NCBI GenBank assembly: GCA_964359735.1
Contig: CAYHTZ010000001.1
Span: 1,457-65,456 of the forward strand
Direction of reading: 5' to 3'
DNA length: 64,000 nt
Source: an uncultured Candidatus Saccharibacteria bacterium
Lineage (GTDB): Bacteria; Patescibacteriota; Andersenbacteria; UBA10190
The notes under the pieces are model-generated. The model made no database searches. It worked only from the letters and a program-made list of their open reading frames with translations, and was not told the DNA's origin. This document shows positions 26,772-56,456 of this stretch, piece after piece (position 1 is the first letter of the stretch; every line of letters begins with the position of its first letter). The translations under genes and the position numbers were made by a program.

Positions 26772-28689
26772 TAGCATCACCCGGGGCAGATGTAGGGCTC
26801 TCCAAAAAAATGTAGTACGTTTTTCCCGCGGAATCTACGATCGGCTCGAACTCAAAGCGGTGGTAGAAGCTGTCCTGAACATCACTAGCATTCACCCGCA
26901 CTGTCCGTACATCCTGTTGCGAAGCAACAAGCCCTGAGCCTGCTTGCAGTGAGCCCGTCGAAGGGCCAACCACTTCACGCACATGCATAATGACATCCTG
27001 CGTGTTATGGCGGCTGCTGAACGTGGCCATGCCGACCTCGATAGCATGCCACCCATTTGTAAGTATCGGCACAAGTTGTCCAACAGTTGCCCCGCCATAT
27101 AACTCACCCACGTGGTTAGGAAAATAGTGCAGCCCACGCGTGTCGTAGACCCATACATACGGCACCCCTTGTATCTCCACCACGTGCGCTACTTTCTCAT
27201 TCTGGAATTCCTCCCATACCTCTGTCGCTGAATTTGCCGGCCCTCTTCCCAGCATGTTTCGATAGAGCACCACAAATCCTACTCGCTCATCAGCCCGTGA
27301 GCTTAAGCCCAACGTTTTTCCTTGAAAATACGCTCGCATGACCCCCGGATACCAGGAAGCTACAAACAACTCCTCCACACTTGGCTGTCTATTAAGCCAA
27401 GCGGCCGCTTCCTCCAAACCCTCTCCCCACCCTTGCTGCGACAGCGGGCGCACATCAAAAAATGGGTTGTTATAGGCAATGCTGTGGGGAATCCAAATAA
27501 AAAGCTGGGCCGCAATTAAAATAGCTATCAGAGACAGGCCTGCCCCGCGAAGCTTTAGCGAAGTGGGGACCCATCCAGAAGCGGTAAATGCAATAGCCAA
27601 CGCCCACCCTGCCACCACTGGCAACACCACCAACCCCGGCAACGCATACCGATCCGCTTTCTTCGCAGCGATCGTTATAAAAATCAAGAATCCTAAAGCA
27701 TAAACAATTAACCAAATGACATTAGAAGCCTGTGGAGACACCGTAGAGCGAAGATCCCGCGAAGCTTTAGCGAAGTGGGATCGCAGCAGAGTCATTGCAC
27801 AAGCAATTAGCGCTCCCGCGCCCAAAATCAATACAAACGGCGTTGTTCTCCCCAGAATCGTACGCACATAGAAGCTAGCGGGGGAAGTCGGCTCTTCTGA
27901 CTCTTCCAATACCACGTGAGTATCCTGAATAACGTAAGGGACTTCACGGCGGAAGTATTTCTCAAGGTCGGCGTAAAACCATAATGCCGGCCATAGGATA
28001 TAGAAAACCAGCGCCGCTATACCTAAGGTGAACCCTAGTCGCCGTACCACCTCCCCTACCCGGGTGCGATAGTCCCAAAGCAGGACCGCAGCGAAGAAGA
28101 GCACTACCCACGCCGTTGGTAAAAATTTCGTCGCCATCGCCAGCCCCAGGAAAACTCCTGCGGCAGCTAACCCTACAAAACCCCCTGCCCGGCGATAGAG
28201 GAGAAAACACAACGCTGCATTCAGCATAAATAGCGCCAGCAGCGCATCCAAGTGCACAATCTGGCTCATACCCACGCCATACGGCTCAAGCGCGAGCAAA
28301 ACTCCGGCAACCACGCCCGGCCACACGCCAAAGAGGCGTTGCAACAGCCAAGTGGCAGCACCAATCAGCCCAGCCACCACTAATACAATCGGCCAGAGTG
28401 CGGCTCGACGGAACTGCACCAAATTCGCTGGCTCCTGAGTAACTCCTAAGCGCTGCTCTTGCAGCATGATTCCCGCGCCAGCTATCCACATAGCCGTGGC
28501 CCCAGGGTGAGTCGTCATAAACGCTCCCCCGGGATCGTGGTCAATGAAGAGGTTGCGATAGAGTCCGGCGCTGCGCAGCATCCAATTTTCCTCATCCACC
28601 GTCATGAAACTGCCCAGCCCGGGCAGGCGCGCTCCTAGGGCAATGATGCCTACTCCAAGAGCAGCCCAAAATACTTTTGATATCCGCAT
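26671..28689 (-). CDS. GT39/ArnT/PMT-like GT-C glycosyltransferase with C-terminal soluble domain; carries two family B insertions
   Basis: HPGATAMW...SQIVHLDALL...QQGWGEGLEEAAAW; C-terminal domain has FYHRFEFEPIVDSAGKTYYIFL. Confidence 0.7.
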   Translation of the reverse strand: MRISKVFWAALGVGIIALGARLPGLGSFMTVDEENWMLRSAGLYRNLFIDHDPGGAFMTTHPGATAMWIAGAGIMLQEQRLGVTQEPANLVQFRRAALWPIVLVVAGLIGAATWLLQRLFGVWPGVVAGVLLALEPYGVGMSQIVHLDALLALFMLNAALCFLLYRRAGGFVGLAAAGVFLGLAMATKFLPTAWVVLFFAAVLLWDYRTRVGEVVRRLGFTLGIAALVFYILWPALWFYADLEKYFRREVPYVIQDTHVVLEESEEPTSPASFYVRTILGRTTPFVLILGAGALIACAMTLLRSHFAKASRDLRSTVSPQASNVIWLIVYALGFLIFITIAAKKADRYALPGLVVLPVVAGWALAIAFTASGWVPTSLKLRGAGLSLIAILIAAQLFIWIPHSIAYNNPFFDVRPLSQQGWGEGLEEAAAWLNRQPSVEELFVASWYPGVMRAYFQGKTLGLSSRADERVGFVVLYRNMLGRGPANSATEVWEEFQNEKVAHVVEIQGVPYVWVYDTRGLHYFPNHVGELYGGATVGQLVPILTNGWHAIEVGMATFSSRHNTQDVIMHVREVVGPSTGSLQAGSGLVASQQDVRTVRVNASDVQDSFYHRFEFEPIVDSAGKTYYIFLESPTSAPGDAITVRFANSDLAAGEMVKNGTSLPGRDVAYRLPK
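27539..27568. repeat. Family B palindromic element, copy 1 (encodes PTSLKLRGAG in the host frame)
   Basis: cctgccccgcgaagctttagcgaagtgggg. Confidence 0.8.
27753..27782. repeat. Family B element, copy 2 (encodes HFAKASRDLRS); perfect 6-bp TIR gatccc/gggatc
   Basis: gatcccgcgaagctttagcgaagtgggatc. Confidence 0.8.
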
Positions 28690-29486
28690 CTACCCTGTAT
28701 GATGGGCGCATGTTTCGCCAATGTAAAATTTGTGGAGGAGCGGTTACTCCTCGGCATACGGTAAGCAGCATTACCTACTATCACTGCTCCAGCTGCGATT
28801 TTCTACAGAATTATCATTGGGAGGACCATCACTTCTCCGCCCCGGAACAAGCAGTGGCCAACGATGAAGCCCGGGCCGACCGCTGGCCGGCCGGGAAAAA
28901 GAAAGATATGTATGAAGCCGGCTGGCGCATGCTGGAGCTTCTCACGTCCCCTATCGCCTGGGGCTCTCGGAAGGTTCACAACGTCTTTAAAATAATCCCC
29001 GGATACACTCATCTCACCCGCACCCTCGCCAAACGTCGCCTAAAGCGCGTTCTCGATTTCGGCTGCGGCCACGGCGTCAGCGTACTGGAAATACGCAATC
29101 GCGACGGTATCGACATTATCGGCCTAGACCCCTACAGCCCCACAGCTAGCCCCCACATCGTGCGCAAACCCATTCATGACGCTAACCTCGAACCTGAGTC
29201 TCTTGATGCTATTATCTCTGTGGAAACAATGGAGCACATCTCCGATGTCCTCCCCACATTCCGGGCTCTCCACCGCATACTTCGCCCCGGCGCTGCACTT
29301 TTGATACAAACTCACCGCCTGGAAGACCCCGGGTACATTCGCGACCAAGACAAATGGTTTTACCTAAAAGACCCCAAAACTCACGTCAGTATTTACAGTG
29401 ACCGCGCTCTAGACGAGATCGCCAAGAGAACCGGATTTAGCCGAGCCGAAACCCGCGACATCCGCACCGCCCGCCTTTGGAAATAA
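28677..29486 (+). CDS. Class I SAM-dependent methyltransferase with N-terminal zinc ribbon
   Basis: CKICGG...CSSCDF; VLDFGCGHGV; DAIISVETMEHI. Confidence 0.65.
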   Translation: MISASTLYDGRMFRQCKICGGAVTPRHTVSSITYYHCSSCDFLQNYHWEDHHFSAPEQAVANDEARADRWPAGKKKDMYEAGWRMLELLTSPIAWGSRKVHNVFKIIPGYTHLTRTLAKRRLKRVLDFGCGHGVSVLEIRNRDGIDIIGLDPYSPTASPHIVRKPIHDANLEPESLDAIISVETMEHISDVLPTFRALHRILRPGAALLIQTHRLEDPGYIRDQDKWFYLKDPKTHVSIYSDRALDEIAKRTGFSRAETRDIRTARLWK

Positions 29487-29492
29487 ACCCAA

Positions 29493-30017
29493 CTAGGCCA
29501 GTGTTGGATATATGCCTGGCGGTTCCGGCTCACGGAATACCTCTGCTCGTTGGATTAGTTCCGTAGTAGTCGCTTGTACTTGCCCCGAACGCTCTAACGC
29601 TTGTATCTCCGAAAGTGTTTTCCACTCTGCTCTAACATGGCCCCCACGAGCCACTACATCAGGCTTTTGCCCCGGAGGAAACTCCACAATCAGAATATCA
29701 ATAGAGCGGTCAACAAATTTAGTTTCATCACGCGGATCAGGCAATCTTCGAAAGACATGGCCACCGCGGCGAAGGTCGTCCTGCCCCACAAGAATCCCTG
29801 TCTCTTCCTCTAATTCACGTGCCGCAGCTTTCCAGGCCAGATCCCCGTCCTCTTCTTCAACCTTACCTCCTGGCAGATTTAATTGATTCGCCCAACGTTT
29901 GCCTGGCGCTCTCTCGAGCAGCAAGTATTCATCCCCGCATTTCACAACAATAACCACAAATGGTCGCACGCCATCCCGCCCGAAATCTGGAATGTCCGCG
30001 GCCTTATTCGTTAACAT
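29493..30017 (-). CDS. NUDIX hydrolase
   Basis: NUDIX box GGKVEEEDGDLAWKAAARELEEETGI. Confidence 0.7.
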   Translation of the reverse strand: MLTNKAADIPDFGRDGVRPFVVIVVKCGDEYLLLERAPGKRWANQLNLPGGKVEEEDGDLAWKAAARELEEETGILVGQDDLRRGGHVFRRLPDPRDETKFVDRSIDILIVEFPPGQKPDVVARGGHVRAEWKTLSEIQALERSGQVQATTTELIQRAEVFREPEPPGIYPTLA

Positions 30018-30027
30018 CCCTCTTCTT

Positions 30028-32682
30028 CTACCGCACCCGCCGGTAAAAGGTCAATGGGTTTGAGCCGTTCTCAACTTCGTGTACCTTCACGAAATCTCTA
30101 GGTAAACCTTGCTCTAAATCGGCGTACTCCACGAAGAAAGAAAATTGGGTTTGCGACTCGTGCAATACCCACTTCGCATCTTTGAATGCTTGTACCATTT
30201 CCTCCGCCGGGGGCAAGAAGGTGTTGAGGCGCTCAGTATCTTTCCTCGTGAACTCATACGCGTACCAACGCGGGTGGGCAATGTCAAGCGACACCGCGTG
30301 CCCTGAAACATACGGAACAAGAGCAGCGCCAGTGAAAACGGGGTCGTCAGGCGGAACATGTTCTTTGGCCCACTGGGCAGCTTCATTAATCGAGCTTTGG
30401 CCAAACGTACCGGTGTGCTCAAACAAGAACGTAATGTAACTTCCCGTATACAGCGCCCAGAACATCACTGCGACCGCGCCAGCCACCACTAGTTTCCGCA
30501 GCACTGCGATCGGCGGGTAATCGCTAGAAAGGAACAAGGGCGCCCGTAAGCGGTCAAAGAGGTACATCACCCCGGGAGCCGCCAATAAAATAAGCGGGGG
30601 AATAAACTCGGCTATATAATTGGCATGGAATTTAATCCAGTTCGTATAGAACACCACAAGTCCCAACATCCACAGCGGCCCCACGAGCGCTGCAGTAACC
30701 TTTGGTAGGAAATCTTTCTGCTTGCTACTTGATATCTGATACTTACTACTAGACATTGGTTGCGTGCTCTTCGGAACTACTGGCGGCTCTTCGAGAAGGC
30801 GAAGCGCATCTTCTTGCTGCCGCGGCATGAGCGCAACCAGCAAAACTCCCAACCCCATCACCCACCACAGCGTGGGAATACCGAGAATACGAAAGGCCTC
30901 GCCTTCATATTCGTTAAAGAATCCCCACGCCCAGCCGAACACTAACAGAGCAGGCACCCAACCCAGCTTTGGCACGTAATGATCCAGGAAGCGAATAGTT
31001 ACGCGAGAGAGGCTGTCCCGCGTAGCCTTGGCGAAGTGGGACAGCCATTCTATGCCAGCGCGTATCGCCCGCTCGCAGGCAATGCCAAACCCTAACAGTC
31101 CAAACCAAATGAGCGCTAACGACTCGCGGAAAAAGGGTGTCATCCCCCGCAGAGAATACGCGCGTATTAATCCGGCATCTTCTTCTGCCACGTTGATCCC
31201 GTCTTCGGCTGAGTTAGCGCCTAACGCTTCCCAAACTCCCTCTACCCCATACGTGAGCCAGGCTACTCCCAAGAAGAGACCGATGACTACTGCAAAACTA
31301 ATGCCCACAGTAAAAAATTGCCGCCAAACCTGCCTGCCCCGCGAAGCCTTGGCGAAGTGAGGGCCATAGAGAAGTATGAAAAGTATCGGGACAAGCCCCA
31401 ACGCCAACATGCTCTTCCGCGAGGCCACGGCGAGTCCCAGCAACACCCCAGCGAGCGCAAACCACCAACTCGCGGCCGGCGCCCTTGGCGCAAAAAGAGA
31501 GGCGCGTGGCGTGGTTCCCCTTAGTGCCATCAGAAGCACGGCGAGACCTGAGATGCCCAAAAATATTGCCACCGGCTGCGTGTGCACGTAGATATCGAAA
31601 ACAATCGCGCTGCCGAAGAATGCCCAAGCCGCAGCTGCTACCAGCCCTGTTTTCTTATCAAATAAATCCCGACCTAAGGAGTAGATGGGGAGAAGTGTTA
31701 AGGCACCGATCACAACACTCGAAAGTCTGCCTGCCAAAATGGTATGGCCAAAAATGAATTGCCAAATTGAAATCCACGCTACTACGAGCGGCGCTTTTAC
31801 ATATCCATCCCCACCCGCGAGGTTCCCCTTGAGTAAAGTCCAGGCATCGTATAAATAGTTTCCTTCATCGGTGGTGAGCGGCAGCTCCAATGCGTACCAG
31901 AGACGCATAAAGAACGCGGCTAAGAGAAGTATGGGCAACCATACGGCCAAGCTTAAAGTATGACGGCGAATCAAGCCTACGCAGACGAGAAACAGCACCG
32001 CGGGGAGCGCTAGCCTAGCCCACAACCAATATGTGCTTTTTTTCTCATCCCACGTGCCGATAAACGTCCGCGCGTATCCTTGTGCCTTGGTCCAGACAGC
32101 CTCGCGCGCTGTGACCGTGTGGTACGTTTCAAAAACCACATCAATCGTCGGCTTCCCGGCCGCGGCCAGGGTTGCCGGATCAGTCACCGCCGAGCCTTGA
32201 TCCTTGACTATAAATGCCGAGCCTAAGTGATAAGGGTCTTGGGTATTGAGATCCACCGTCACCGCGTTACCCGGCGTACTCTCCGGCGAAACCAAAAAGA
32301 AGAAGTATGTTTTGCCTTTAGAATCAGGAATTGGATCAAAAGTAAAACGATGGAATTGATTGTCACGAAGCTCGCTGGCTGACACCGACGCCACTCGTAC
32401 ATCTTCTTTTGCCGAAAGCCCCTCGCGTACATGGAGCTTCACAAGCTGCGTGTTGTCTCGATTCGAGTACGTCGCGAACATCACCGAGAGGCCCGATAAA
32501 TCATCTTTCTGTGCTACGAATGTCTGCCCCACCAACACATCGCGCACTATTTCCCCCGCGTTCGTGGTGTATTTCCCAATTTGCGTCTCAACTAATCTCA
32601 CTTTCACAAATTGGCTCGCAATCGTAGCCGCCGCTACCAGAAGTACAATCATCCCCAGCGCAAATTTTGTCGTCGTCTTCAC
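30028..32682 (-). CDS. Large membrane protein: N-terminal soluble beta domain plus GT-C-like polytopic region; carries two family B copies and one family D copy
   Basis: 884 aa; N-terminal domain has NQFHRFTFDPIPDSKGKTYFFFL; more than 12 TM segments. Confidence 0.55.
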   Translation of the reverse strand: MKTTTKFALGMIVLLVAAATIASQFVKVRLVETQIGKYTTNAGEIVRDVLVGQTFVAQKDDLSGLSVMFATYSNRDNTQLVKLHVREGLSAKEDVRVASVSASELRDNQFHRFTFDPIPDSKGKTYFFFLVSPESTPGNAVTVDLNTQDPYHLGSAFIVKDQGSAVTDPATLAAAGKPTIDVVFETYHTVTAREAVWTKAQGYARTFIGTWDEKKSTYWLWARLALPAVLFLVCVGLIRRHTLSLAVWLPILLLAAFFMRLWYALELPLTTDEGNYLYDAWTLLKGNLAGGDGYVKAPLVVAWISIWQFIFGHTILAGRLSSVVIGALTLLPIYSLGRDLFDKKTGLVAAAAWAFFGSAIVFDIYVHTQPVAIFLGISGLAVLLMALRGTTPRASLFAPRAPAASWWFALAGVLLGLAVASRKSMLALGLVPILFILLYGPHFAKASRGRQVWRQFFTVGISFAVVIGLFLGVAWLTYGVEGVWEALGANSAEDGINVAEEDAGLIRAYSLRGMTPFFRESLALIWFGLLGFGIACERAIRAGIEWLSHFAKATRDSLSRVTIRFLDHYVPKLGWVPALLVFGWAWGFFNEYEGEAFRILGIPTLWWVMGLGVLLVALMPRQQEDALRLLEEPPVVPKSTQPMSSSKYQISSSKQKDFLPKVTAALVGPLWMLGLVVFYTNWIKFHANYIAEFIPPLILLAAPGVMYLFDRLRAPLFLSSDYPPIAVLRKLVVAGAVAVMFWALYTGSYITFLFEHTGTFGQSSINEAAQWAKEHVPPDDPVFTGAALVPYVSGHAVSLDIAHPRWYAYEFTRKDTERLNTFLPPAEEMVQAFKDAKWVLHESQTQFSFFVEYADLEQGLPRDFVKVHEVENGSNPLTFYRRVR
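30713..30758. repeat. Family D repeat, in-frame (encodes MSSSKYQISSSKQKD)
   Basis: gcttgctacttgatatctgatacttactactagaca, related to 22262-22336. Confidence 0.55.
31011..31046. repeat. Family B element, copy 3 (encodes SHFAKATRDSLS); 9-bp perfect TIR ggctgtccc/gggacagcc
   Basis: ggctgtcccgcgtagccttggcgaagtgggacagcc. Confidence 0.8.
31333..31365. repeat. Family B element, copy 4 (encodes GPHFAKASRGRQ)
   Basis: cctgccccgcgaagccttggcgaagtgagggcc. Confidence 0.8.
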
Positions 32683-33644
32683 CAGTAATGCTTCCTATAC
32701 TTTTTGTAGTACTCCACCATCTGCCGGATGCCATCTTTCAAAGAAACTCTAGCCTGCCAGCCGGTGAGGGATTCTATCTTAGACGTGTCGGCCACGTAGT
32801 TGCCCGTCTCATTCTTCTCATAATTTTCCGGCCAGGGCACGTGCTTTTTGCTGCCGCTACCTACTTCGGCCAGCACCGCGTCCACCATGTCCACAAACTT
32901 CACGCGCTCGTGCGTGCCAATGTTATAGATTTCACCTGCCTCGCCTTTGCCTGCCAGCTGTAAGAACGCATCGACGATGTCGTCCACGTACATGTAATCC
33001 CGCTCCTGTTGGCCATCGCCAAATATTTGGATTTCTTTATCCTCCATGGCGAGCCGCACAAACCAGCCCACAATAGAGTACTTGCTGTGTTTCATCTGCT
33101 GCCTGGGCCCATACGGGTTAGGAATATGTACTGACACCGTGTGTAAGCCAAATGTGTCCGCGTAGTAACGGTAATATTTTTCTCCGAGAAGTTTATGAAT
33201 CCCGTAAACCGAAAGGGGATTCGTAGGGTGGTCCTCTTTCACTGGTGTCGTCAAAATCTTCCCGTACGCCAAGCGCGAGGAGGAAAACAAAATCTTGGCC
33301 TTCGGGTTATGCTCGCGCATGGCTTCTAGCACATTGAGATGTCCCCGGCCATTGATATCTAAATCCAAAAACGGCTGGTCTTTTGAGTCTATGTAGCTCA
33401 CCTGCGCCGCGAAATTGAAGATTAAGTCTTTTTCCTGAACCAGCTTGTCTATTACCTCTTTGTCGCGAATGTCACCTCTAATAAATTCAACCTTGTCCCG
33501 AATCCCTTCCAAATTAAATTCATTTCCTCCGTAGAGAGGCAACATCGCGTCAAGGACAGTCACGGTATCTCCGCGTGCCACCAAAGCATGAGCAAGATTG
33601 CTGCCTATAAATCCGGCGCCGCCCGTAATGAGAACTTTCGCCAT
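32679..33644 (-). CDS. NAD-dependent epimerase/dehydratase (GalE-like extended SDR)
   Basis: ITGGAGFIGSNL; YGIHKLLGE (YxxxK). Confidence 0.7.
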   Translation of the reverse strand: MAKVLITGGAGFIGSNLAHALVARGDTVTVLDAMLPLYGGNEFNLEGIRDKVEFIRGDIRDKEVIDKLVQEKDLIFNFAAQVSYIDSKDQPFLDLDINGRGHLNVLEAMREHNPKAKILFSSSRLAYGKILTTPVKEDHPTNPLSVYGIHKLLGEKYYRYYADTFGLHTVSVHIPNPYGPRQQMKHSKYSIVGWFVRLAMEDKEIQIFGDGQQERDYMYVDDIVDAFLQLAGKGEAGEIYNIGTHERVKFVDMVDAVLAEVGSGSKKHVPWPENYEKNETGNYVADTSKIESLTGWQARVSLKDGIRQMVEYYKKYRKHYW

Positions 33645-33653
33645 TCCTTTAGC

Positions 33654-36699: not shown

Positions 36700-37710
36700 T
36701 TATTCTCCCAGACTCTTTTTGGGAATGAGATAATTCTGCACATAATCAGCAATGGCATCCTCCAGCTCCGTCATCTCTTCTCCATAGCCAGTGGCTCTGA
36801 GTTTAGAAATATCCGCCTGGGTAAAATTCTGGTACTGGTTTTTCAAGTTGGCCGGCATATCCACGTAGCGAATGTTCGGCATTTTCCCCACCGCGAAAAA
36901 CATCGCCCTCGCCACGTCGTTCCAACTCCTGGCTTTGCCAGTACCAACATTGTATATACCCGCGGCCTCGCGGTGATCCAGTAACCACAAAGTAGCAGCT
37001 AGTACATCTTTAATGTAAATGAAGTCTCGCTTCTGCTCGCCATCACCGAAGTCGGGGTGGTTCGACTTAAAGAGCTCAACCACTCCCTCCTGCTGCATCT
37101 GGTGAAACTTCTTAAACGGCACGCTAGCCATTTCTCCCTTGTGGTACTCATTAGGTCCAAACACATTAAAGTAGCGCACCCCCGCCACTCCGCCAGTTGG
37201 CGGATTGAGGTAGCCCCCGTCCCGCGCCCAAATATCTACCAGCAACTTGGATTTCCCATACAGGTTGAGCGGCACCAGTTCCCCAAAGAGAGCATGGTCA
37301 TCGCTGTATCCCCGCGCGCCATCGCCGTAGGTTGCCCCGCTTGAGGCATATACGCAGCGCGCCCCGCGGTCTGAACACCAGCGGATAATATCCTTAGAAT
37401 ACTCAACGTTATTATCCAACAAGTATTCCCAGTCCGTTTCCGTTGTACTGCTACATGCCCCCATGTGCAGTATGGCTTCGATGCCTGCCCCGCGAAGCCT
37501 CGGTGAAGTGGGGTCGTAATCGCCTGCCCGCAGCCTTTCTCGAAATTCTTTGATTCCAACCAACTCCTCATACTTGAGCGGAGCAATGTTGCACTCCTTC
37601 TCGTCGTGACCAACATCGTCTACCAAGAGAATATTGCTTTCTCCGCGCTCGTTTAAAGCCCATAACAGCGCCGAGCCGATAAAGCCCGCCGCGCCAGTGA
37701 TAACAATCAT
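36700..37710 (-). CDS. hldD: ADP-L-glycero-D-manno-heptose 6-epimerase (HldD/RfaD); carries a family B insertion
   Basis: MIVITGAAGFIGSAL...ILHMGACSSTTE...YASSGATYG aligns along its length with E. coli HldD; ATGA overlap with the upstream gene; track ORF extends to 37803. Confidence 0.75.
   Translation of the reverse strand: MIVITGAAGFIGSALLWALNERGESNILLVDDVGHDEKECNIAPLKYEELVGIKEFRERLRAGDYDPTSPRLRGAGIEAILHMGACSSTTETDWEYLLDNNVEYSKDIIRWCSDRGARCVYASSGATYGDGARGYSDDHALFGELVPLNLYGKSKLLVDIWARDGGYLNPPTGGVAGVRYFNVFGPNEYHKGEMASVPFKKFHQMQQEGVVELFKSNHPDFGDGEQKRDFIYIKDVLAATLWLLDHREAAGIYNVGTGKARSWNDVARAMFFAVGKMPNIRYVDMPANLKNQYQNFTQADISKLRATGYGEEMTELEDAIADYVQNYLIPKKSLGE
37484..37514. repeat. Family B element, copy 5, in-frame in hldD (encodes PTSPRLRGAG)
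   Basis: cctgccccgcgaagcctcggtgaagtgggg. Confidence 0.8.
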
Positions 37711-38219
37711 GTCCGTATCTTGGCGATGAGGCGCGTAGTTGACAAGTGATTGCGTCGCGGAGTGGTGTATCCTTTCGCCCCCACTTCTTGCATGGCGGGC
37801 CACTCAACCCACGTTTCCGGCAGGCCATAATCCGGGCCGTTGATATGCACGTGCGGTTTCACTGCTCGCACGAGCGCCTGCGGCACTCCGCCTCCATACG
37901 GGGCATCAATGACTATCACATAATCCACACACGCGAGCGCTGCTAACATAGCGGCGCGGGCTGCCTCAGGAATATAAGGACGGCTGGTCCCTTTCCCCTG
38001 CTGCACAGATTCATCTGAGTTCAGTCCCACGAATAACACATCGCCTTGGCGCCTCGCCTCTTCGAGCTGGTCAAGATGCCCGGCGTGTAAAAAGTCGAAC
38101 GAACCATTCACCGTCACAATCTTCTTGCCAGCACCCCGCAGCTCCCCAGCAACCTTGGCCGCCTCCTCGAGCGTTTTCATTTTCTCAGTCCGCCAGTTCG
38201 TTGTATCGAATTCAGGCAT
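37707..38219 (-). CDS. hldE: D-glycero-beta-D-manno-heptose 1-phosphate adenylyltransferase (stand-alone HldE domain II)
   Basis: KIVTVNGSFDFLHAGHLDQLEEAR...LFVGLNSDESV matches the E. coli HldE C-terminal domain. Confidence 0.7.
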   Translation of the reverse strand: MPEFDTTNWRTEKMKTLEEAAKVAGELRGAGKKIVTVNGSFDFLHAGHLDQLEEARRQGDVLFVGLNSDESVQQGKGTSRPYIPEAARAAMLAALACVDYVIVIDAPYGGGVPQALVRAVKPHVHINGPDYGLPETWVEWPAMQEVGAKGYTTPRRNHLSTTRLIAKIRT

Positions 38220-46788: not shown

Positions 46789-46791
46789 ATC

Positions 46792-47547: not shown

Positions 47548-47562
47548 ACCTTCACATTATGC

Positions 47563-49362: not shown

Positions 49363-49423
49363 GGCCAGACAATATCACTTCCGCCCACGTTCCGTCCACG
49401 CAAATGACACCGCTCGGCTTATC

Positions 49424-49443
49424 ACGATATTTCGTAATATCGT
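49424..49443. promoter_or_regulatory. Palindromic site downstream of TrpR-like paralog 2
   Basis: acgatat-ttcgta-atatcgt; shares the 11-mer cgtaatatcgt with 49911-49921. Confidence 0.45.
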
Positions 49444-49458
49444 ATTGCATCTCCAGGT

Positions 49459-49890
49459 TCAGTGGCCGAGCATCAGACTCACCAATAAAAAATGCAGCGG
49501 GTAACGGCGGCGTAAACTGTCAAAGGACCCCAATGTATCACCGTATCGGCGGCGAAATTCTTTCTTTTTAGTCTTAGGATCCTTCCGGAAAGTAGCCAGA
49601 ATCTGGGGATAATTATCCAAGGACTTACGTAACCACCGATCAACAGATTCAATGGTCGAAAATCCTACTCCCAGTTTGAAGCGAATATCAAAATAGGACT
49701 TTTCCTCAAGCAACATTTTCGCAATCTGCCAACGCCGGCCAACCATCGCCAACTCGCTTGGCGTGAGAAGCTGCTCAAGAAATCGTCGCACATCTTCTGT
49801 GCTCTCAAGTTTTCGAATGGACATTGCCATCTCGCGAAGCAGGTTGTCTCGCTGTACTTTCTCCAATTTCCGATAATCAAACCTTGCCAC
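49459..49890 (-). CDS. TrpR/YerC/YecD-family DNA-binding protein (paralog 2)
   Basis: LTPSELAMVGRRWQIAKMLLEEKSYFDIRFKLGVGFSTIESVDRWL; the C-terminal tail LRRRYPLHFLLVSLML parallels paralog 1. Confidence 0.6.
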   Translation of the reverse strand: MARFDYRKLEKVQRDNLLREMAMSIRKLESTEDVRRFLEQLLTPSELAMVGRRWQIAKMLLEEKSYFDIRFKLGVGFSTIESVDRWLRKSLDNYPQILATFRKDPKTKKKEFRRRYGDTLGSFDSLRRRYPLHFLLVSLMLGH

Positions 49891-49904
49891 CTAGGAATAT
49901 TACC

Positions 49905-49918
49905 ATATTACGTAATAT
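49905..49918. promoter_or_regulatory. Perfect 14-bp palindrome upstream of TrpR-like paralog 2
   Basis: atattacgtaatat, followed by cg to give an ATATCG half-site. Confidence 0.45.
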
Positions 49919-49964
49919 CGTGATAGAACAAATACCAGAGTTAACAATTGTGGATAGGCAATAC

Positions 49965-51578
49965 TTACTCCAGCAACCCGCCGAAGCGCGTGGTTTCGGT
50001 AGCCGCCAGCGGCAGGAAGCGCCGCGGAATGTAACGCCTCAGCGCCTGCAATTCTTCACACCGTAAAATCCAGCACATGAAAATATAGACCCCGACTCCC
50101 GCCCCACCCGCCACCACCAGCTGAGTAGCCACCCCCCAGAACCGCTGCATATCCACCACCGCCGCAATCGGATACTTAAGGAATTGGACGACTCCACCCG
50201 CCACCAGTGCAGCCAACACCATCCGCGCTCCGCTGCGTAGTAAATCCCGCCCATCAAAGCCATGGAGTTGCCCGCGCAAGGTCAGGATGAGGAGGAGGAG
50301 ATTCAGGACTGCGGCTGCAGAAAACGCTAACGCCAACCCCTGCACTCCCATAATGGGAGCCAAGTACACCGCCAAAAAAACGTTGACCGCAATGCTCGCT
50401 GAGGAAATAAGAACCGGGGTCATCGTGTTCTGCCGCACGTAAAACGCCCTGGTGAGAAGCGGAATCGTAGCCTGCGCAAAGATGCTCAAGGTTAACCACC
50501 CGAACGTTTCGAAAGTAAGAATGGTGTCTTCCCAGTCGAAAGCGCCGTCTCCAAAGAGAACACGAATGATTTGGGCACGCAGTAAAAAGAAAAAAACCGA
50601 GAGGGGAATAACGAAGAAGAGAATATAACGAAACGTCTGCGTGAGCGTATGCAAAAACTGGCGATGCTCCCTTCTGGCCTCATGTTCCGCCAAAGTAGGA
50701 AAAGCCGCTTGGGCAAAGGCCAAGCCAAAAATGGCTACCGGGAGAGTTTGGACGTTGTTAGCCAGGTGAAATGCGCTAATGCTCCCTGCCAGCAGCGTTG
50801 AGCCGATGATAGTCACAATCAGAAGGTTAATTTGCTGAGCCGCTAAACCAAAAACACGCGGCACCAACATACGCCAGAGCGCCGTGAGATCCTTGCTTCC
50901 CCAACGGATGTCGGATCGCCAACGAAAGCCAGATCTCCATACGCTCGGGAACTGTACCAGCATATGCAAGAACGCTCCGAGCACCACCCCCCACCCCAAC
51001 CCCGTCACGCCCATCATCGGAACCAGAGCGAGCACGCCAAAAATAATTCCCACGTTGTACAAAATGGGAGCGAGCGCATACATCACAAATTTTTTGAAAG
51101 AGTTTAAGATCCCAGAGAACACAAAACTGATCGAGAGAAGAATCGGCTGCCAGGCCATGATGCGCGAGAGCAAAATGGTAAGTTCCAGTTTCTCGCCGGT
51201 GAAACCAGGAGTGATCAGCGGCACAATCCTGTCCGCCAGCAGCGCATACGCCGCCATACAGGCAGCCACGATCAGAAGGACGGCATTCAGAACAGCTAGT
51301 GCGAAATCAAACGCCCGCTTCTTGCCTTCCTTCCCCTGAACCAATTTATCCGTAAAAAGCGGAATAAAGGTGGCGGACAGCGCACCTACCACTACCAAGT
51401 TAAATACGAGGTCGGGAATACGAAAAGCGGCCACAAATGCGTCGAACGTATCCCCCGCGCCAAACGTAGTCGTAAAGACACGCTGCCGCACGAGCCCAAC
51501 CAGTGCGCTGGCCAGCGAGGAAGCGCCCAAAACGAGAGCTGCACCTACCACCGAACCATTCTTCGTGGACTCTGACAT
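49965..51578 (-). CDS. murJ: Lipid II flippase MurJ
   Basis: 537 aa, 14 TM segments; FRIPDLVFNLVVVGALSATFIPLF. Confidence 0.8.
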   Translation of the reverse strand: MSESTKNGSVVGAALVLGASSLASALVGLVRQRVFTTTFGAGDTFDAFVAAFRIPDLVFNLVVVGALSATFIPLFTDKLVQGKEGKKRAFDFALAVLNAVLLIVAACMAAYALLADRIVPLITPGFTGEKLELTILLSRIMAWQPILLSISFVFSGILNSFKKFVMYALAPILYNVGIIFGVLALVPMMGVTGLGWGVVLGAFLHMLVQFPSVWRSGFRWRSDIRWGSKDLTALWRMLVPRVFGLAAQQINLLIVTIIGSTLLAGSISAFHLANNVQTLPVAIFGLAFAQAAFPTLAEHEARREHRQFLHTLTQTFRYILFFVIPLSVFFFLLRAQIIRVLFGDGAFDWEDTILTFETFGWLTLSIFAQATIPLLTRAFYVRQNTMTPVLISSASIAVNVFLAVYLAPIMGVQGLALAFSAAAVLNLLLLILTLRGQLHGFDGRDLLRSGARMVLAALVAGGVVQFLKYPIAAVVDMQRFWGVATQLVVAGGAGVGVYIFMCWILRCEELQALRRYIPRRFLPLAATETTRFGGLLE

Positions 51579-51599
51579 GGGTCGATTGTAGCAGGCCGC

Positions 51600-54137
51600 C
51601 TACCGGCGCTCAAACACGGCACCTAAAACGAGATCTTGTGAGAGTTCTCCCCGAAAGACCAGTTCGCTCGCGCTCACTGGCGTAACACCATTTTCAGGAA
51701 TGTGCGTGATCATACGCATCTCTTCCGGCAACTGTAGCGCCACTCGCAGCGAGGTGCGCGCCTCTCCCGGCTGCTTCGCTATATACGTAGAGAGGCGTGA
51801 AGCTTCATCAATCATGCCGGGCATTGCGAGTCGGCCAGGTAACTGGTAGCGCAAAAACGTCTCGTTCGTTTGCCCAGGTGGAGTGATCACCCAATTCGCA
51901 AAAAAAGTATAGCCAGCTTCCCGGCCAACCATCGTTCCGCTCTTGTGGGCTACCTGTCCACGCTGCCACTCGGCAACATCGGCATCTACTGAAAGTGGTA
52001 TCCCCTCTTCTGCCTCAACTAATCGCGGCACCGTGGCCGCCGGCGAAAACCCCCGCGCTTCGATAAGCGTGGCTCCCGCTGGGACCAGAACTCGCTGATA
52101 AACAATGTTATCCTTCACCGCCGGGTCTTCTCCAGGTGAATACGGATAGTCTCCTTTCTCACTCGGTCCACGGTGGGTGCGCCGGACGGCGACTGTCGCC
52201 GCGGCAGTTCCATCGCTGTCCACCTCCAGGCGGTAATCAATTTCCTGTTCTATAAACTGATCGCTTTTATGGCCGCCAATATTCGCATTATTGACCATCA
52301 GGAAATGCGGCGCGTCAGGCGGTAGTTTTCCTCCCCACCCTAGCTCCACGACCTTCTTCTGTAATTCATCATCTCGAAAAAAGAGGAGTAAGTGCTTCTG
52401 GGCTAAGTTACGAGTTAACACCGAGAGCAGAGCGAGCGGTTCTGTCTCCTCGGCTTGAAAGAGACGATTGAGTAAAATAGGTGTCAAGTCAGCCAAAAAT
52501 TGCTTAGGCCGGTTAAGACTTCTGTCATACTCGTACGTTACTTCCCGCTGGGTAACTTCCGTAAAATTATCAGCGGTAACCACCACATCATAGCCAGGCA
52601 TGGAAATCGGGCCGGCCGCTCGGAGCAAATCCTGAATAACCTGGGGCGTGAGTAAAATTACGCCATCAACTGTTTGTCCCCCTTCCTTCTCGAAGAACTG
52701 AGCTGCCTTCGCGGCGCTCACGGCGTAATCGACAAACCAGTTAGAGTCGCGCAGATACCATCGATTGACAATGGGTGTGAGTGGATCAGGCGGAGCGATG
52801 AAATCCTTCAGCTGGCCGTCTCCTTCGTATACAGTCTTAACATCGATCTCCTCAACTACCCCTTGATCGATGCTAATGAGGCCCAAACTTCCGATAAAGC
52901 CTCCCACCGGCCGCAGTTCATGGTTATTCGCAAATAGTACAAGGTATTCTCGTTCCCGTTCATGCCCCAACAACGTCAGGAAACCATCCGCTTGTTCGTC
53001 AAACTGGGCCAGCAGCGTTCGAATCCGGGGCAGAGCTGCCGCAATTCCCTTTACATCAGTCTGAACCTCGGCCGGTAACAGGCTGCTTTGCACAACCGCA
53101 AATTCCTTTTCAGCATGGGCCAAGAGATCTTCAGCTTGCATAAACTCACTCCGCGCCTGCCGAGTGGCCGCTATCAGCGAATTACTCTCGCTTGAAGCCT
53201 CTTTATTAATCAGGACATCGGCGGAAAGAAGCGCCGCTAGCGCCCGTGAAACATGCTGCCCCGCCTGAGTAAGCGCCTCTCCCCCGGCGAGCAATGCTTC
53301 TCCAGAACGAACTGTGCCGGTGACATCTACGAGCTTAAGAGCATGCCGGGAAGTTGAGAGAGCACCTTCCAGCTCAGCCCTGGCGGAAGCAATAATCACT
53401 TCAGCGTCAGCAAAGGCAGTTTCACTGCGAGCAAAGTCGGCTTCCGCTAAAGCCGACCGTGCACTCGTAAGACGCGCTAACGCCTGTTGGGCCTGGTGCT
53501 CCACGCTTCGAAAAACTTTCCAGCCCTGCCCCGCACCCTGCAAGTTCCAGATCACGCCGGTCGCAAAAAGACAGCCCGCCAGCAGCAAGCTAAGATTGAG
53601 CGAGCCTATCGGGACTTTTTTTTTAGCCACCACGCGACGGGGGGTACCCTCTTCAACATGGGACCTCCCAAACAGCGCCATCGGCCAAACACTTATGTGA
53701 AATGGCAACCGTAGCGCACGTTTTGGCTCAGCAATCACTCTGGGAGAAGCCACGGCTGCCGGCTGTACCGAAGTAGCAGGCGCCCGAGGGAAATCATGTT
53801 GCGGCCACTGCCTGGCTCTGCCGCCACGATCCAAGGCACCTTTCATAATCGAACCCATGTAGGGGGGCGAGATCAAACGCAACTGCGGCCGGCTCCCGCG
53901 CTCTACCTCCCTCCGACGGCGCTCCGCTCGGGTCGCTGGCTCACCGACAATGCGCTGCGTATTGAGCGGCCGGCGGCGGAAGCCTTGCACCGCCAGCTGC
54001 TGCCTCGCGGACTTACGCAGCCTGGCCGGTAACTTCCACTGTATTTTCAAAACGTGTCGACTAGCTCGAGAACGCGAGGGCGGCCTGCCCCGCGCCGCGG
54101 CGCTCTGCGGAGTGGAGTAGGGAACCACATCAAGCAT
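51600..54137 (-). CDS. Large membrane-anchored extracytoplasmic protein (DUF4012-like?); true start probably an internal Met
   Basis: Basic N-terminus, single TM (SLNLSLLLAGCLFATGVIWNL), long coiled-coil region, about 500-aa C-terminal domain. Confidence 0.5.
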   Translation of the reverse strand: MLDVVPYSTPQSAAARGRPPSRSRASRHVLKIQWKLPARLRKSARQQLAVQGFRRRPLNTQRIVGEPATRAERRRREVERGSRPQLRLISPPYMGSIMKGALDRGGRARQWPQHDFPRAPATSVQPAAVASPRVIAEPKRALRLPFHISVWPMALFGRSHVEEGTPRRVVAKKKVPIGSLNLSLLLAGCLFATGVIWNLQGAGQGWKVFRSVEHQAQQALARLTSARSALAEADFARSETAFADAEVIIASARAELEGALSTSRHALKLVDVTGTVRSGEALLAGGEALTQAGQHVSRALAALLSADVLINKEASSESNSLIAATRQARSEFMQAEDLLAHAEKEFAVVQSSLLPAEVQTDVKGIAAALPRIRTLLAQFDEQADGFLTLLGHEREREYLVLFANNHELRPVGGFIGSLGLISIDQGVVEEIDVKTVYEGDGQLKDFIAPPDPLTPIVNRWYLRDSNWFVDYAVSAAKAAQFFEKEGGQTVDGVILLTPQVIQDLLRAAGPISMPGYDVVVTADNFTEVTQREVTYEYDRSLNRPKQFLADLTPILLNRLFQAEETEPLALLSVLTRNLAQKHLLLFFRDDELQKKVVELGWGGKLPPDAPHFLMVNNANIGGHKSDQFIEQEIDYRLEVDSDGTAAATVAVRRTHRGPSEKGDYPYSPGEDPAVKDNIVYQRVLVPAGATLIEARGFSPAATVPRLVEAEEGIPLSVDADVAEWQRGQVAHKSGTMVGREAGYTFFANWVITPPGQTNETFLRYQLPGRLAMPGMIDEASRLSTYIAKQPGEARTSLRVALQLPEEMRMITHIPENGVTPVSASELVFRGELSQDLVLGAVFERR
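53616..53624. repeat. T9 (A9 on the coding strand) homopolymer inside the CDS
   Basis: gggactttttttttagcc encodes VAKKKVP just before the TM anchor. Confidence 0.6.
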
Positions 54138-54166
54138 AGCATTCAGTATATATCAGTTTTGAATTT

Positions 54167-54195
54167 CCTGCCCCGCGAAGCTTCAGCGAAGTGGG
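54167..54195. repeat. Family B element, copy 6, overlapping the 3' end and stop codon of the GT4 gene
   Basis: cctgccccgcgaagcttcagcgaagtgggg; host frame reads ...T P L R TGA. Confidence 0.8.
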
Positions 54196-55328
54196 GTGCG
54201 TTCCGACTTTTGAGCCTTGGCATACACCTCAAGCGTGGCTCTGGCACAATCGTCCCAAGAAAACTGCTGCGCTCTCTCCTTGCCCTGTGCAATGAGCCTT
54301 TCTCTGACTGCTGAATCAGTGACAATGTGCTTGAGCGCCCGCACTATACCCGGCACGTACTCGGGGTTCACAAGCCGAGCCGCTCCCTCCATGATTTCCG
54401 CTGACCCAGCCACATTAGAGGTAATAACGGGCGCACCCGCCGCTGCTGCTTCCAGCGCGGGCAGCCCGAACCCCTCGTAGAGGCTGGGGAGTAAGAGGCA
54501 CACTGATTCAGCATACAACGCCGGCAAAAGCTCTTCCGGCACAAATCCAGGGAAAACAACGTGCTTTGTGATCCCGAAGCGCTGGACTAACTTCACCATA
54601 TTGATATACCGGGGCCGAGGCTTGCCAATTAAGACAAGTTTCAGCTGGGGCATGTGCTCGCGTACCTGAGAAAAAGCAGTCAAAAGGCGCGGCAAATTCT
54701 TGTGGCTCATCCAAACACCCACGTAGAGCACAAATGGATCGCGGGATCCTATCAGGGCGCGCACCTTTGCCTTATGGGTGGCGCTCACGGGCTGGAAAAA
54801 TTGCTCATCGACTCCCTCGTATATAACCGACGGCCGTGGGAGCTTGAGAGGTAAGCGCTCTAATTCCTCCCGCGTGGTTTTCGAAACGCAGATCACTGCT
54901 CGAGCGCGGACCACCGCCCGGGCAAATACCAATTCATACACAAATTGCTTAAGTAAGCTCTGTTGTATCTGTCCCGGAAAAAGAAACCGCGTGGCATCGT
55001 GGATTGTCACCACATATGGCTTACGAAATAACATAGGCACGTTGAAATGGGTAAAGTGAAAAAGATCAGCCTTCACCGCTTCTGCTTGCCTCCAAAAAAC
55101 AGTTTGTTCTTTAACCGAGTAGTATTCGCCTTCGACTGCCACGACCGAAAAGCGATCGTGCAATAAATGCTGCCGGCGAAAGGTTTCAAACTCGGCGCGG
55201 TCCGCGCGCGGCAGCAGCACCACATATTCGTGTCCTACCGGCGTCCGGCTTAGGCTCGCAAGCAGCGAGCGCGTATACCGCCCTAAGCCCGGCCAGCCAA
55301 ATGCCCGAGCATCAATAGCAACCTTCAT
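54183..55328 (-). CDS. GT4 glycosyltransferase
   Basis: MKVAIDARAF N-terminal domain; C-terminal LYEGFGLPALEAAAAGAPVI. Confidence 0.7.
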   Translation of the reverse strand: MKVAIDARAFGWPGLGRYTRSLLASLSRTPVGHEYVVLLPRADRAEFETFRRQHLLHDRFSVVAVEGEYYSVKEQTVFWRQAEAVKADLFHFTHFNVPMLFRKPYVVTIHDATRFLFPGQIQQSLLKQFVYELVFARAVVRARAVICVSKTTREELERLPLKLPRPSVIYEGVDEQFFQPVSATHKAKVRALIGSRDPFVLYVGVWMSHKNLPRLLTAFSQVREHMPQLKLVLIGKPRPRYINMVKLVQRFGITKHVVFPGFVPEELLPALYAESVCLLLPSLYEGFGLPALEAAAAGAPVITSNVAGSAEIMEGAARLVNPEYVPGIVRALKHIVTDSAVRERLIAQGKERAQQFSWDDCARATLEVYAKAQKSERTPLR

Positions 55329-55331
55329 TTC

Positions 55332-56456
55332 TCAAGGGTAGGCAACTCGTGCCAAAACGCCTAGGGTCTCGCGCGCCGCCCTCTCCCACGAAAATCGAGC
55401 CCGGATAGTCTCCTGAACAAATCCTGGGACAAGGGGGAGTTCTCCCAGAAGCTCGCGCAGCACCAGCGCTAACTCCCCCACGTCGTACGGATCCACCAGC
55501 GTGGCCCACTCGCCTACCACCTCAGGCAGCGCCGAGTTAAACGATGTCACCACCGGCGTGCCGGCCAGTAGCGCCTCGAGCGGGGGAAAGCCGAACCCTT
55601 CATATAAGCTGGGGTAAACAAACAAATCGGCCGCGGTATAGAGAGCTGCCTTTTCCTCCTCAGGGATAAAACCAAGCACATGAATGCGATCGCGGGCCCG
55701 GGAAGCGCGCATCGCTTTGTCAATTTCACCCGTTGACCACCCAGCCGCACCCGCGATCACAAGATCCTGCGCCACGTGATCAGCAATCGCCGAATAGGCG
55801 CAGATTAAGCTATCAACATTCTTACGCGGCTCTAATGTACCCAAGTAAAGAACGAAGTGTGCAGGAAGCCCAGCGACAGGCCTACCCGCCGAAGCCTTGG
55901 CGAAGGCGGGACCCGTCGTGAGTCCCAACGAGACCCCTGAATATACCACCTGAACCTTTTCCTCTGGCACCCCGTACACATTCACTAAATCTTGTTTGGT
56001 GTGTTCGGACACCGCTATCACCGCCTGCGAGCGTTGCGCCAGCTGACGCGGCTTCATCACCGCGTGCCAAACCCGCTGCTTAAAATTAAATAACTCAGGA
56101 AAATGCTCATACGACAAGTCATGGAAAACCGACACCAGGGGGAGGCCGGCCGAAAGCGGAACGAGCCCCAGACTCGGCATAAATACGCAATCAACAGCGG
56201 GGAGCCAGCGGTCCCATTTGGGCGCGTCCAGGAAACGCTGGGCCAGTTTGAATACTTTATTCGGGTAGCGAAACTCGTGCACGGCTACGCCGCTGCCAAA
56301 ATCCGGCAGCGTAACCTTGCGCGCCGAATTGTAAAACAAGTGGTACTCATTCTGCGGCGCGACGGCCGCCAAGGCTCGCACCATCTCAGCCGTGTACCGC
56401 TCTATGCCGCTAACACCCCCCTCCATCAGCGAGCGAACGTCAATGGCAATTTTCAT
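55332..56456 (-). CDS. GT4 glycosyltransferase; carries a family B variant copy
   Basis: C-terminal LYEGFGFPPLEALLAGTPVV; contains PAFAKASAGRPVAG. Confidence 0.7.
   Translation of the reverse strand: MKIAIDVRSLMEGGVSGIERYTAEMVRALAAVAPQNEYHLFYNSARKVTLPDFGSGVAVHEFRYPNKVFKLAQRFLDAPKWDRWLPAVDCVFMPSLGLVPLSAGLPLVSVFHDLSYEHFPELFNFKQRVWHAVMKPRQLAQRSQAVIAVSEHTKQDLVNVYGVPEEKVQVVYSGVSLGLTTGPAFAKASAGRPVAGLPAHFVLYLGTLEPRKNVDSLICAYSAIADHVAQDLVIAGAAGWSTGEIDKAMRASRARDRIHVLGFIPEEEKAALYTAADLFVYPSLYEGFGFPPLEALLAGTPVVTSFNSALPEVVGEWATLVDPYDVGELALVLRELLGELPLVPGFVQETIRARFSWERAARETLGVLARVAYP
55881..55912. repeat. Family B element, copy 7 (variant)
   Basis: cctacccgccgaagccttggcgaaggcgggac. Confidence 0.7.

Follow-up and report, generated by a model that had tools for sequence, protein, structure and literature searches.

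The window analysed here, the whole stretch of 64,000 nucleotides of contig CAYHTZ010000001.1, is an island of genes for cell-envelope glycans together with some housekeeping genes, and the nearest relatives of its proteins bear the name Candidatus Andersenbacteria. Seven copies of a 30-nt palindromic element, all on the + strand, are spread over its 27.5–56 kb part, at the places where an earlier note on this DNA had located them. The consensus of the element is C-Y-T-G-Y + CCCGCGAAGC-YTYR-GCGAAGTGGG + R. With a probability of roughly 0.7, the seven copies are non-autonomous, hairpin-forming insertion elements of 30 nt, dispersed in the Patescibacteria (candidate phyla radiation, CPR) and similar to very small repetitive extragenic palindromes (REPs) or Rickettsia palindromic elements (RPEs). 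The copies are given below, with scores from the covariance model R1, which was built from 117 listed copies of the element (see the genome scan described later), and with the peptides in amino acids (aa) of the host proteins.

27539..27568, + strand: copy 1, CCTGCCCCGCGAAGCTTTAGCGAAGTGGGG; R1 54.7 bits; antisense peptide VPTSLKLRGAG, aa 374–384 of a 672-aa PMT-like protein
27753..27782, + strand: copy 2, extended stem GATCCC...GGGATC; R1 44 bits; RSHFAKASRDL, aa 303–313 of the 672-aa PMT-like protein
31011..31046, + strand: copy 3, 9-bp extended stem GGCTGTCCC...GGGACAGCC, GTA in place of the 5′ GAA; R1 44.9 bits; WLSHFAKATRDSL, aa 546–558 of an 884-aa PMT_2 protein
31333..31362, + strand: copy 4; R1 47.1 bits; PHFAKASRGR, aa 441–450 of the 884-aa protein
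37484..37513, + strand: copy 5; PTSPRLRGAG, residues 66–76 of a 336-aa heptose epimerase (P0001)
54167..54196, + strand: copy 6, spanning the 3′ end of a glycosyltransferase family 4 (GT4) gene and the adjacent spacer; the gene's four final codons (TPLR) and its TGA stop are part of the copy
55881..55910, + strand: copy 7, compensatory, fully Watson–Crick stem CCCGCC...GGCGGG; R1 45.9 bits; PAFAKASAGR, aa 183–192 of a second GT4 protein

Four + strand sites matched the 30-mer consensus CCTGCCCCGCGAAGCYTNRGCGAAGTGGGG with at most one mismatch, against none in dinucleotide shuffles, and a looser search with the core gave the seven sites, on the + strand only, those at 27753, 31011 and 55881 being more diverged. 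The seven copies scored 44–55 bits with R1 (E ~1e-9 to 1e-11) and the next best match in the window 12.6 bits; because of this gap, the family was taken to have exactly seven members there. A putative eighth copy at 24323 was not significant. What the earlier note had pointed out was confirmed in the sequence: GCGAAG is repeated directly inside the element (at a spacing of 11 nt), the ends are C4/G4, and some copies have arms extended as GGCTGTCCC/GGGACAGCC or GATCCC/GGGATC.

The genes that hold the copies are the following.

26671..28689, − strand: 672-aa PMT/PMT_2 (GT39/GT-C-like) membrane glycosyltransferase; copies 1 and 2
30028..32682, − strand: 884-aa PMT_2-domain membrane protein; copies 3 and 4
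36700..37710, − strand: hldD, ADP-glyceromanno-heptose 6-epimerase, 336 aa; copy 5; the GTG at 37803 is upstream of the true start
54183..55328, − strand: GT4 glycosyltransferase, 381 aa; copy 6 provides the stop codon
55332..56456, − strand: GT4 glycosyltransferase, 374 aa (P0121); copy 7, in the inter-domain linker

Each copy is within, or at the 3′ end of, a minus-strand open reading frame (ORF) with a Pfam or NCBIfam identity, and the frame is kept open in every case, as the earlier note had proposed. Its figure of at least six host genes has to be lowered to five, two of which hold two copies each. The use of three reading frames was borne out: four copies are read as xHFAKASRxx, two as PTS(L/P)(K/R)LRGAG and one as TPLR followed by a stop. 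The HFAKAS-type frame, attributed to four genes, is indeed found in four copies, but these are in three genes. Most of copy 6 is intergenic; its overlap with the GT4 gene at 54183–55328 is limited to the last 14 nt, and it is through these that the copy provides TPLR and the stop, in agreement with what had been claimed. The GT4 profile alignments stop at about residue 371–374, ahead of copy 6, and the domain is complete upstream. The hosts are intact members of their families, HldD scoring 366 bits with TIGR02197 (cut-off 275), which speaks against pseudogenes. A contig from Hainich groundwater (0.1-µm sample) also carries the epimerase gene.

The status of the copies as insertions was examined by comparison with orthologues. 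In an alignment of 22 epimerase orthologues, the window protein displays DPTSPRLRGAG where P0002 (86% identical in alignment A1) has DPKN and the others also have four residues; at the DNA level, the extra block with respect to P0002 is the element itself. The epimerase orthologue P0080 contains DPTSLELRGAGH, a clean gain of 10 aa at a site different from that of the window copy. In the DNA of P0080, exactly 30 nt are placed between conserved GAC|CAC codons, with an ambiguity of at most 1 nt; therefore, there is no target-site duplication (>1 nt) and the 5′ tail belongs to the inserted unit. The orthologue P0013 carries the variant NPAFAKGYGGQ at a third site. In an AlphaFold2 model of the epimerase (mean predicted local distance difference test score, pLDDT, 90), the insert is predicted in a coil that runs from helix 53–61 to strand 79–82, with a local dip of pLDDT. 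In the second GT4 protein, PAFAKASAGR lies in the hypervariable inter-domain linker, and the orthologues P0124 and P0125 are without the peptide. At the site of copy 2, P0361, which is the nearest representative at 60% identity, is shorter by about 10 aa. Copy 1 (27539), located in a variable inter-helix loop, was not counted as a clean net insertion, as the loops of the homologues are of similar length and unalignable. Outside the window, the insert in a leucyl-tRNA synthetase (LeuRS) is absent in 15 orthologues. So, concerning whether orthologues show the same peptide at the same sites, insert-free relatives were found for the epimerase (P0002), the GT4 protein (P0124 and P0125) and LeuRS. 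Together with the copies at other sites in P0080 and, as a variant, in P0013, they support the independent insertions that the earlier note had deduced from the unrelatedness of the hosts.

Other short inserts, PVKSPGGDHGAS / PVKPADAGHGAG and GPxxLxPPxGxRR..SVxRAG.., were noticed in P0009 and P0010 (epimerase), in P0122, P0126 and P0240 (GT4 linker) and in P0241 (LeuRS). They occupy loops, in some cases the very site of the 30-nt element, which suggests further small insert families in CPR proteins.

The occurrence of the motif beyond the window was studied by an exact-core scan with CCCGCGAAGCNNNNGCGAAGTGGG, run on one genome per species, which gave at least 117 listed loci in ~97 assemblies; statements on listed copies or loci refer to this set. 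The listed matches are almost all from Patescibacteria, with locus GC contents of 31–60% and unrelated flanks, and include Saccharibacteria, Berkel-, Nomura-, Davies-, Woese-, Shapiro-, Zambryski-, Staskawicz-, Levy-, Gottesman-, Uhr- and Vogelbacteria and Paceibacterota. Among them is the complete metagenome-assembled genome (MAG) CP011213. One locus labelled 'Gammaproteobacteria' (L083) is mislabelled, because its LeuRS is closest to those of Patescibacteria. Many MAGs from co-assemblies ('uncultured Gammaproteobacteria/Pseudomonadales'; L001, L002, L016, L022, L083 and others) have GC contents of 37–48% and CPR-like genes, and their taxonomy labels look wrong. Three matches of GC content 63–73% (L031, L058 and L086) lack the 5′ tag and were rejected as chance matches. 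The only clear non-CPR host among the matches listed is the cultured alphaproteobacterium Asticcacaulis taihuensis CGMCC 1.3431 (L089, GC 60%), a possible experimental handle, with two head-to-head copies (3864–3943) in intergenic DNA just after a terminator-like hairpin.

The exact core gave no match in 2.9 million viral contigs, and BLAST searches of plasmids and phages gave chance-level partial matches only; these negative results leave no evidence that a phage or plasmid serves as vector. R1 found 3–4 members in an unbiased set of 80 metagenome loci bearing HldD (673 kb, some of them outside the CPR), so the seven copies per 64 kb of the window represent a lineage-specific enrichment. In 698 kb around 98 seed copies, R1 added about 20 more diverged copies. 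The density of the element varied widely among related genomes and ranged from ~1 per 9 kb to <1 per 200 kb; a genome appears to hold tens of copies at most.

Concerning the anatomy of the element, the 30-nt unit is made up of 5 + 10 + 4 + 10 + 1 nt, that is, a 5-nt 5′ tail, C-Y-T-G-Y, followed by a 25-nt hairpin. The position profile of the listed loci has a sharp 3′ edge after +24, while the 5′ tail fades by −7; the composition of the tail is C 58%, T 59%, T 67%, G 78% and C/T. RNAalifold and single-sequence folding agreed on the hairpin. It consists of a basal stem of 6 bp (CCCCGC/GTGGGG), with a G.T wobble tolerable on the consensus strand only, a symmetric 3 × 3 purine internal loop (GAA/GAA), a 2-bp GC/GC stem and, at the apex, a 4-nt YTYR cap with its first and last bases paired. 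Two pairs covary strongly among the listed copies: pair −1/+24 (CG 66, TA 36, TG 7), with a mutual information (MI) of 0.62 bits, and pair 10/13 (TA 50, CG 50), with 0.75 bits. They were the only pairs to exceed the permutation null, with a maximum of 0.25, and both are positions left free by the search pattern. The four combinations of the two pairs are all common (30, 27, 19 and 14), so the family is not simply composed of two subfamilies. A covariation between tail and loop, considered after the guide-sequence idea of IS608, was not found above the null. The folding energy was −12.8 kcal/mol for the consensus strand and −7.9 to −8.8 kcal/mol for its complement.

In diverged copies the stem is kept by compensatory change (CCCGCC/GGCGGG, CCCTCC/GGAGGG or a shifted wobble), and some of them have GTA for the 5′ GAA or a lengthened apical helix whose sequence is unrelated. 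Nesting was seen once, a copy lying in the loop of another, and tandem and head-to-head pairs also occur, the latter 9–38 nt apart (L011, L015, L017 and L089); most copies, including all those of the window, are singletons. A sub-variant with a CCACGC/GTGTGG stem and a long apical helix (48–51 nt) was noticed at L011 3595–3642, L015 1085–1135 and L017 457–506, repeatedly head-to-head with a canonical copy 22–38 nt away.

The genomic context was analyzed for 115 copies among the listed loci: 60 are antisense within ORFs, 24 are sense within ORFs and 31 are outside ORFs. Hence, 84/115 copies (~73%) are inside ORFs, which make up 87.5% of the locus DNA, whereas the 12.5% that is intergenic holds 27% of the copies and is ~2.6-fold enriched. 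This is the enrichment that near-random insertion with subsequent purifying selection would be expected to give. The genic copies use all six frames. The caps TTTA and TTCA, which would make stops in two of the frames, were absent there (0/11), compared with ~42% elsewhere. The copies are spread along the host genes, as judged by their relative positions, and the hosts include core or essential genes: the aminoacyl-tRNA synthetases for arginine (ArgRS), alanine (AlaRS), leucine and isoleucine/valine (IleRS/ValRS), transketolase, a UvrD-like helicase, UvrA, UvrC and EF-G-like GTPases.

A replication-strand bias was considered as the source of the antisense excess and was rejected: the GC skew tracks gene orientation, and the intergenic copies were 14 at negative versus 17 at positive skew. 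The intergenic copies had no orientation preference relative to neighbouring genes either. Because the skew follows the genes and the intergenic copies are unbiased, the antisense excess is more plausibly due to selection on the peptide or the mRNA than to an effect of replication.

The flanks showed weak preferences: a 3′ CCA was observed 8 times versus 1.8 expected, and a 5′ TTT 15 times versus 4.6. Beyond the unit, they contained <0.2 bit per position, and no downstream enrichment in T was found. Five intergenic copies adjoin the ends of tRNA genes at 0–2 nt, always by the 3′ end of the element; the 64-kb window contains no tRNA genes. Several other copies are directly after an unrelated hairpin, and the copy of L003 is followed by a terminator-like T-run. 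Fragments of other GC-rich palindromic repeats (GTCATTGCGAG..., with peptides like VIPAEAGIQ) were observed near or around copies, in the flanks of L001, L016, L056 and L114 and in the ArgRS of L037. There seem to be several small hairpin repeat families in CPR genomes.

At single sites, two Woesebacteria-like genomes have an insertion at the same position of AlaRS, with flanks 72% identical at the DNA level, which indicates that the insertion, once acquired, was inherited vertically. Conservation of the element above that of its flanks was not accepted in this case, the difference (80% versus 72%) being not significant and ascertainment-biased. In one ValRS and one IleRS, the element is found right after a conserved 'WP'.

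Taking these results together, it seems reasonable to interpret the element as an insertion element that depends on functions supplied in trans. New copies would be made by an enzyme of the host or of a mobile element, which would recognise the folded single strand. An enzyme reading the folded strand would account for the conservation of the pairing and of the GAA/GAA loop and for an apical loop that may lengthen, and the hairpin form would be maintained since propagation needs folding. Insertion would be roughly indifferent to coding status, and selection would then purge the disruptive copies. Those surviving in ORFs would be the tolerated ones: 30 nt is 3 × 10, stops are absent from five or six of the six frames, and the sites would be surface loops or linkers. 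The antisense excess could reflect the better tolerated peptides of that orientation (PTSLKLRGA and PHFAKASRG) and the weaker hairpin left in the mRNA. By analogy with known systems, our best guess for the mobiliser would be a single-strand transposase of the HUH or RAYT (REP-associated tyrosine transposase) type. The near-fixed core across many CPR lineages, unparalleled in REPs, RPEs and transposable elements of the miniature inverted-repeat type (MITEs), argues for a conserved partner, either an enzyme or a binding protein.

Several observations weigh against this interpretation. Mobility is suggested by comparative patterns: no transposition event, no empty/filled polymorphism in a population and no mobilising gene was seen, and Pfam annotation of essentially all window ORFs revealed no transposase, integrase or HUH protein. 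The lack of target-site duplication and the weak flank preferences leave the chemistry of insertion unconstrained. The scan fixed 20 of the 30 positions, so the conservation of these positions across loci is partly due to ascertainment, and the folding energies were unremarkable when compared with shuffles (z = −0.9 to −1.7). The near-invariant core over deeply diverged CPR lineages, unlike the species- or genus-specific REPs and MITEs, means that the partner must be very conserved or that the element has a host function. Finally, in the UvrC gene of two related Paceibacterota MAGs, L061 (~6145–6180) and L072, the whole 30-nt unit occupies the same site within ~3 nt, but the two copies are in opposite orientation, with the tails on opposite sides, which is not predicted by a simple copy-and-insert model. 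Such a pair suggests a very precise hot spot, or else inversion or re-insertion in situ.

The search for a mobiliser was extended by all-against-all clustering of the 1,618 ORFs of the 117 listed loci, which gave no recurrent transposase-like family; only housekeeping families and small GIY-YIG ORFs were recovered. Small GIY-YIG nuclease ORFs were noticed in L015, L065, L067, L098 and L116, several of them after a tRNA-like sequence. As candidate mobilisers they were rejected, one adjoining a copy and the others being 2–6 kb away.

Other explanations were weighed against these data. It is conceivable, but unlikely, that the hairpin is a cis-element beneficial to the host, bound as DNA or RNA by a CPR-conserved protein, with the genic copies as by-products. 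Its roles could be nucleoid or gyrase binding, as proposed for REPs and bacterial interspersed mosaic elements (BIMEs), 3′-end protection or termination, or RNA processing near tRNAs. A host function of this kind would fit a core that stays near-invariant in many CPR lineages and in genomes of 31–60% GC, the conserved GAA/GAA loop and pairing, the five copies joined by their 3′ ends to tRNA genes, the terminator-like T-run of L003 and an AlaRS insertion that outlasted the divergence of species. Against it stand the 73% of listed copies located in ORFs, at unrelated positions and in both orientations, and the intergenic copies, with neither orientation preference nor downstream T enrichment. 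In addition, 60/84 listed genic copies put the weaker, complementary strand in the mRNA, and most related genomes have few copies or none, which is hard to square with a general host function. A scattered, orientation-independent and lineage-variable distribution thus disfavours it. The tRNA ends and other hairpins that copies adjoin could also be taken as a sign of templated or retro-type insertion, in which a short, conserved cellular hairpin of RNA or DNA would be copied into breaks or stalled forks, for instance by CPR reverse transcriptases, no transposase acting on the genomic copies. A conserved master template would then explain the constancy of sequence over CPR lineages, with its extreme conservation of the core, and neither the absence of target-site duplication at one clean site nor that of a transposase in the window would be surprising. 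We consider this very unlikely: no master gene was found, Rfam having no family for the element and the RNase P RNA of the window giving no significant match, and no poly-A or other hallmark of retro-insertion was seen. Copying from copy to copy is a better fit to the way the two covarying pairs assort freely and to the abundance of stem and loop variants.

That the repeat is a peptide motif under conservation, or a segment of an ancient domain, shared by descent and kept at the protein level, might be thought from the several copies that encode the same peptide (HFAKASRG or PTSLKLRGA). The probability of this is practically nil, as it is refuted by the use of the same DNA in six frames and by orthologues without the peptide at the same sites; moreover, the element is also intergenic, the host families are unrelated, and the covariation tracks nucleotide pairing and not codons. 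Scarcely more credible is an artefact of assembly, adapters or chimeras, or a DNA-uptake signal, although a short, GC-rich sequence that recurs in many metagenome assemblies could raise the suspicion. The copies come from many independent projects, including the complete MAG CP011213 and the cultured A. taihuensis, and are without exception placed in frame or in normal intergenic DNA. A dependence on the uptake of DNA has been proposed for CPR bacteria, and known uptake sequences occur about once per kb; the density of the element is far under that value.

The interpretation as a small, non-autonomous insertion element may be compared with known systems. RPEs are palindromic selfish repeats found in frame in unrelated functional genes, to which they add a tolerated peptide (PMC10969869, citing Ogata 2000), and no transposase is known for them. 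The 30-nt element is likewise palindromic and in frame in functional ORFs. RPEs differ in being ~100–150 bp long, adding 30–50 aa and forming about ten genus-restricted families, whereas the element has 30 nt, adds 10 aa and occurs in many Patescibacteria lineages. The five host proteins gave no match to the RPE-domain models of NCBIfam, and the hosts are Patescibacteria, not Rickettsia. The earlier note was right in drawing the parallel with RPEs, but its view that repeats colonising genes in frame are classically restricted to these and a few other cases is overstated, since REPs within genes, repair genes in particular, and the donation of stop codons by REP ends have been reported in other phyla (PMC3733652).

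The element resembles REPs in being an imperfect palindrome of 20–40 nt that folds as a single strand, with a single-stranded tag at one end and conserved mismatches in the stem, and also in its occasional inverted doublets, its copies in repair genes (UvrA and UvrC) and the donation of a stop codon. It differs in the tag, which is GTAG/CGTC in REPs and C-Y-T-G-Y in the element, neither end of which has GTAG or CGTC. REPs are mostly extragenic, whereas 84/115 listed copies of the element are intragenic and all seven window copies touch a coding sequence. REPs are also species-specific and number hundreds per genome, while the element, with apparently tens at most, is shared over CPR lineages. 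No RAYT was found among the window ORFs, nor any recurrent transposase-like family in the 117 listed loci. The element is, then, nearest to REPs by anatomy and to RPEs by behaviour, and lacks defining features of both.

Other comparisons were less close. MITEs have 50–500 bp, terminal inverted repeats and target-site duplication, in contrast to the 30 nt and a duplication of ≤1 nt (P0080) of the element. Unlike palindrome-associated elements derived from IS200/IS605 (PATE-like), it shows no fixed 5′ target of 4–5 nt (<0.2 bit/position) and no strand bias (14 versus 17). It differs from intrinsic terminators in that T is not enriched downstream and most copies are intragenic and antisense. It differs from CRISPR and other arrayed repeats in the dispersion of the window copies, with spacings of 212 to 16,683 nt. 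The small dispersed repeats (SDRs) of heterocystous cyanobacteria, attributed to Elhai et al. 2008, are reportedly mobile, noncoding, of ~21–27 nt, nested in repeats and occasionally located in genes. They are of another phylum and sequence, and systematic in-frame insertion in housekeeping genes is said not to have been reported for them. The GC clusters, double hairpins and sponge repetitive hairpin-forming elements (RHEs) of mitochondria are short GC-rich hairpins in AT-richer compact genomes, also in coding regions, with nesting and lineage-specific bursts (PMC2800124). These are organellar, of variable length and of unrelated sequence, and some need translational bypass, while the element is simply read through.

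No paper describing the element was found by exact-sequence, peptide and keyword searches (subscription journals being outside their coverage), and no NCBIfam model for it was found. Rfam contained no family for it, either with the whole window at the gathering threshold or with a 500-nt stretch over two copies at E up to 10. The supposition that the family was undescribed is thus upheld for the searchable literature and Rfam. The only Rfam match of the window at the gathering threshold was the bacterial class A RNase P RNA (59829–60298, + strand, 197 bits), away from the copies.

CPR bacteria account for a large share of bacterial diversity and have tiny, streamlined genomes, and most of them are uncultured. 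A radiation-wide repeat in frame in their housekeeping genes would be a new marker and, as a source of 10-aa loops, a new force in CPR protein evolution, besides a caveat for the annotation and alignment of CPR proteins and a lead to a DNA-handling enzyme conserved across CPR. It would extend selfish DNA within genes, best known from the RPEs of Rickettsia, to the smallest unit so far and from one genus to a whole radiation, and the R1 covariance model makes a genome-wide census possible. A bolder proposal, which we put forward tentatively, is that of a CPR-centred class of ultra-small mobile DNA. In such a class, a 30-nt hairpin would be kept near-constant by a conserved CPR enzyme acting on folded single-stranded DNA. 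It would be a source of 10-residue loops in CPR proteins, even essential ones (aminoacyl-tRNA synthetases and UvrABC), and might flip or re-insert at the same site, as in the UvrC of L061 and L072.

Other repeats were noticed in the window. A second repeat, of 31 nt (GCTCCAACCCCTCGCCCCACCCAAGC), is found in several PMT_2/GT-C-like ORFs, at the following positions.

8717–8747, + strand: 31-nt repeat
21932–21962, + strand: 31-nt repeat
27411–27441, + strand: 31-nt repeat
12213–12260: 31-nt repeat, inverted

It may be a separate repeat family ('family A'); alternatively, it may encode a ..GWGEG.. peptide motif that is conserved among paralogues. The segments 4857–4984 and 11956–12083, of ~130 nt, are 93–95% identical and belong to the + strand ORFs 3767–5416 and 10836–12524 (the latter PMT_2), respectively; as this match far exceeds that of the rest of both genes, it suggests a recent gene conversion or partial duplication. 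Finally, direct and inverted repeats of 25–31 nt (81–92% identity or complementarity), at 49413–49443 and 49891–49925, flank a Trp-repressor-like ORF (49459–49890) and may be operator-like sites.

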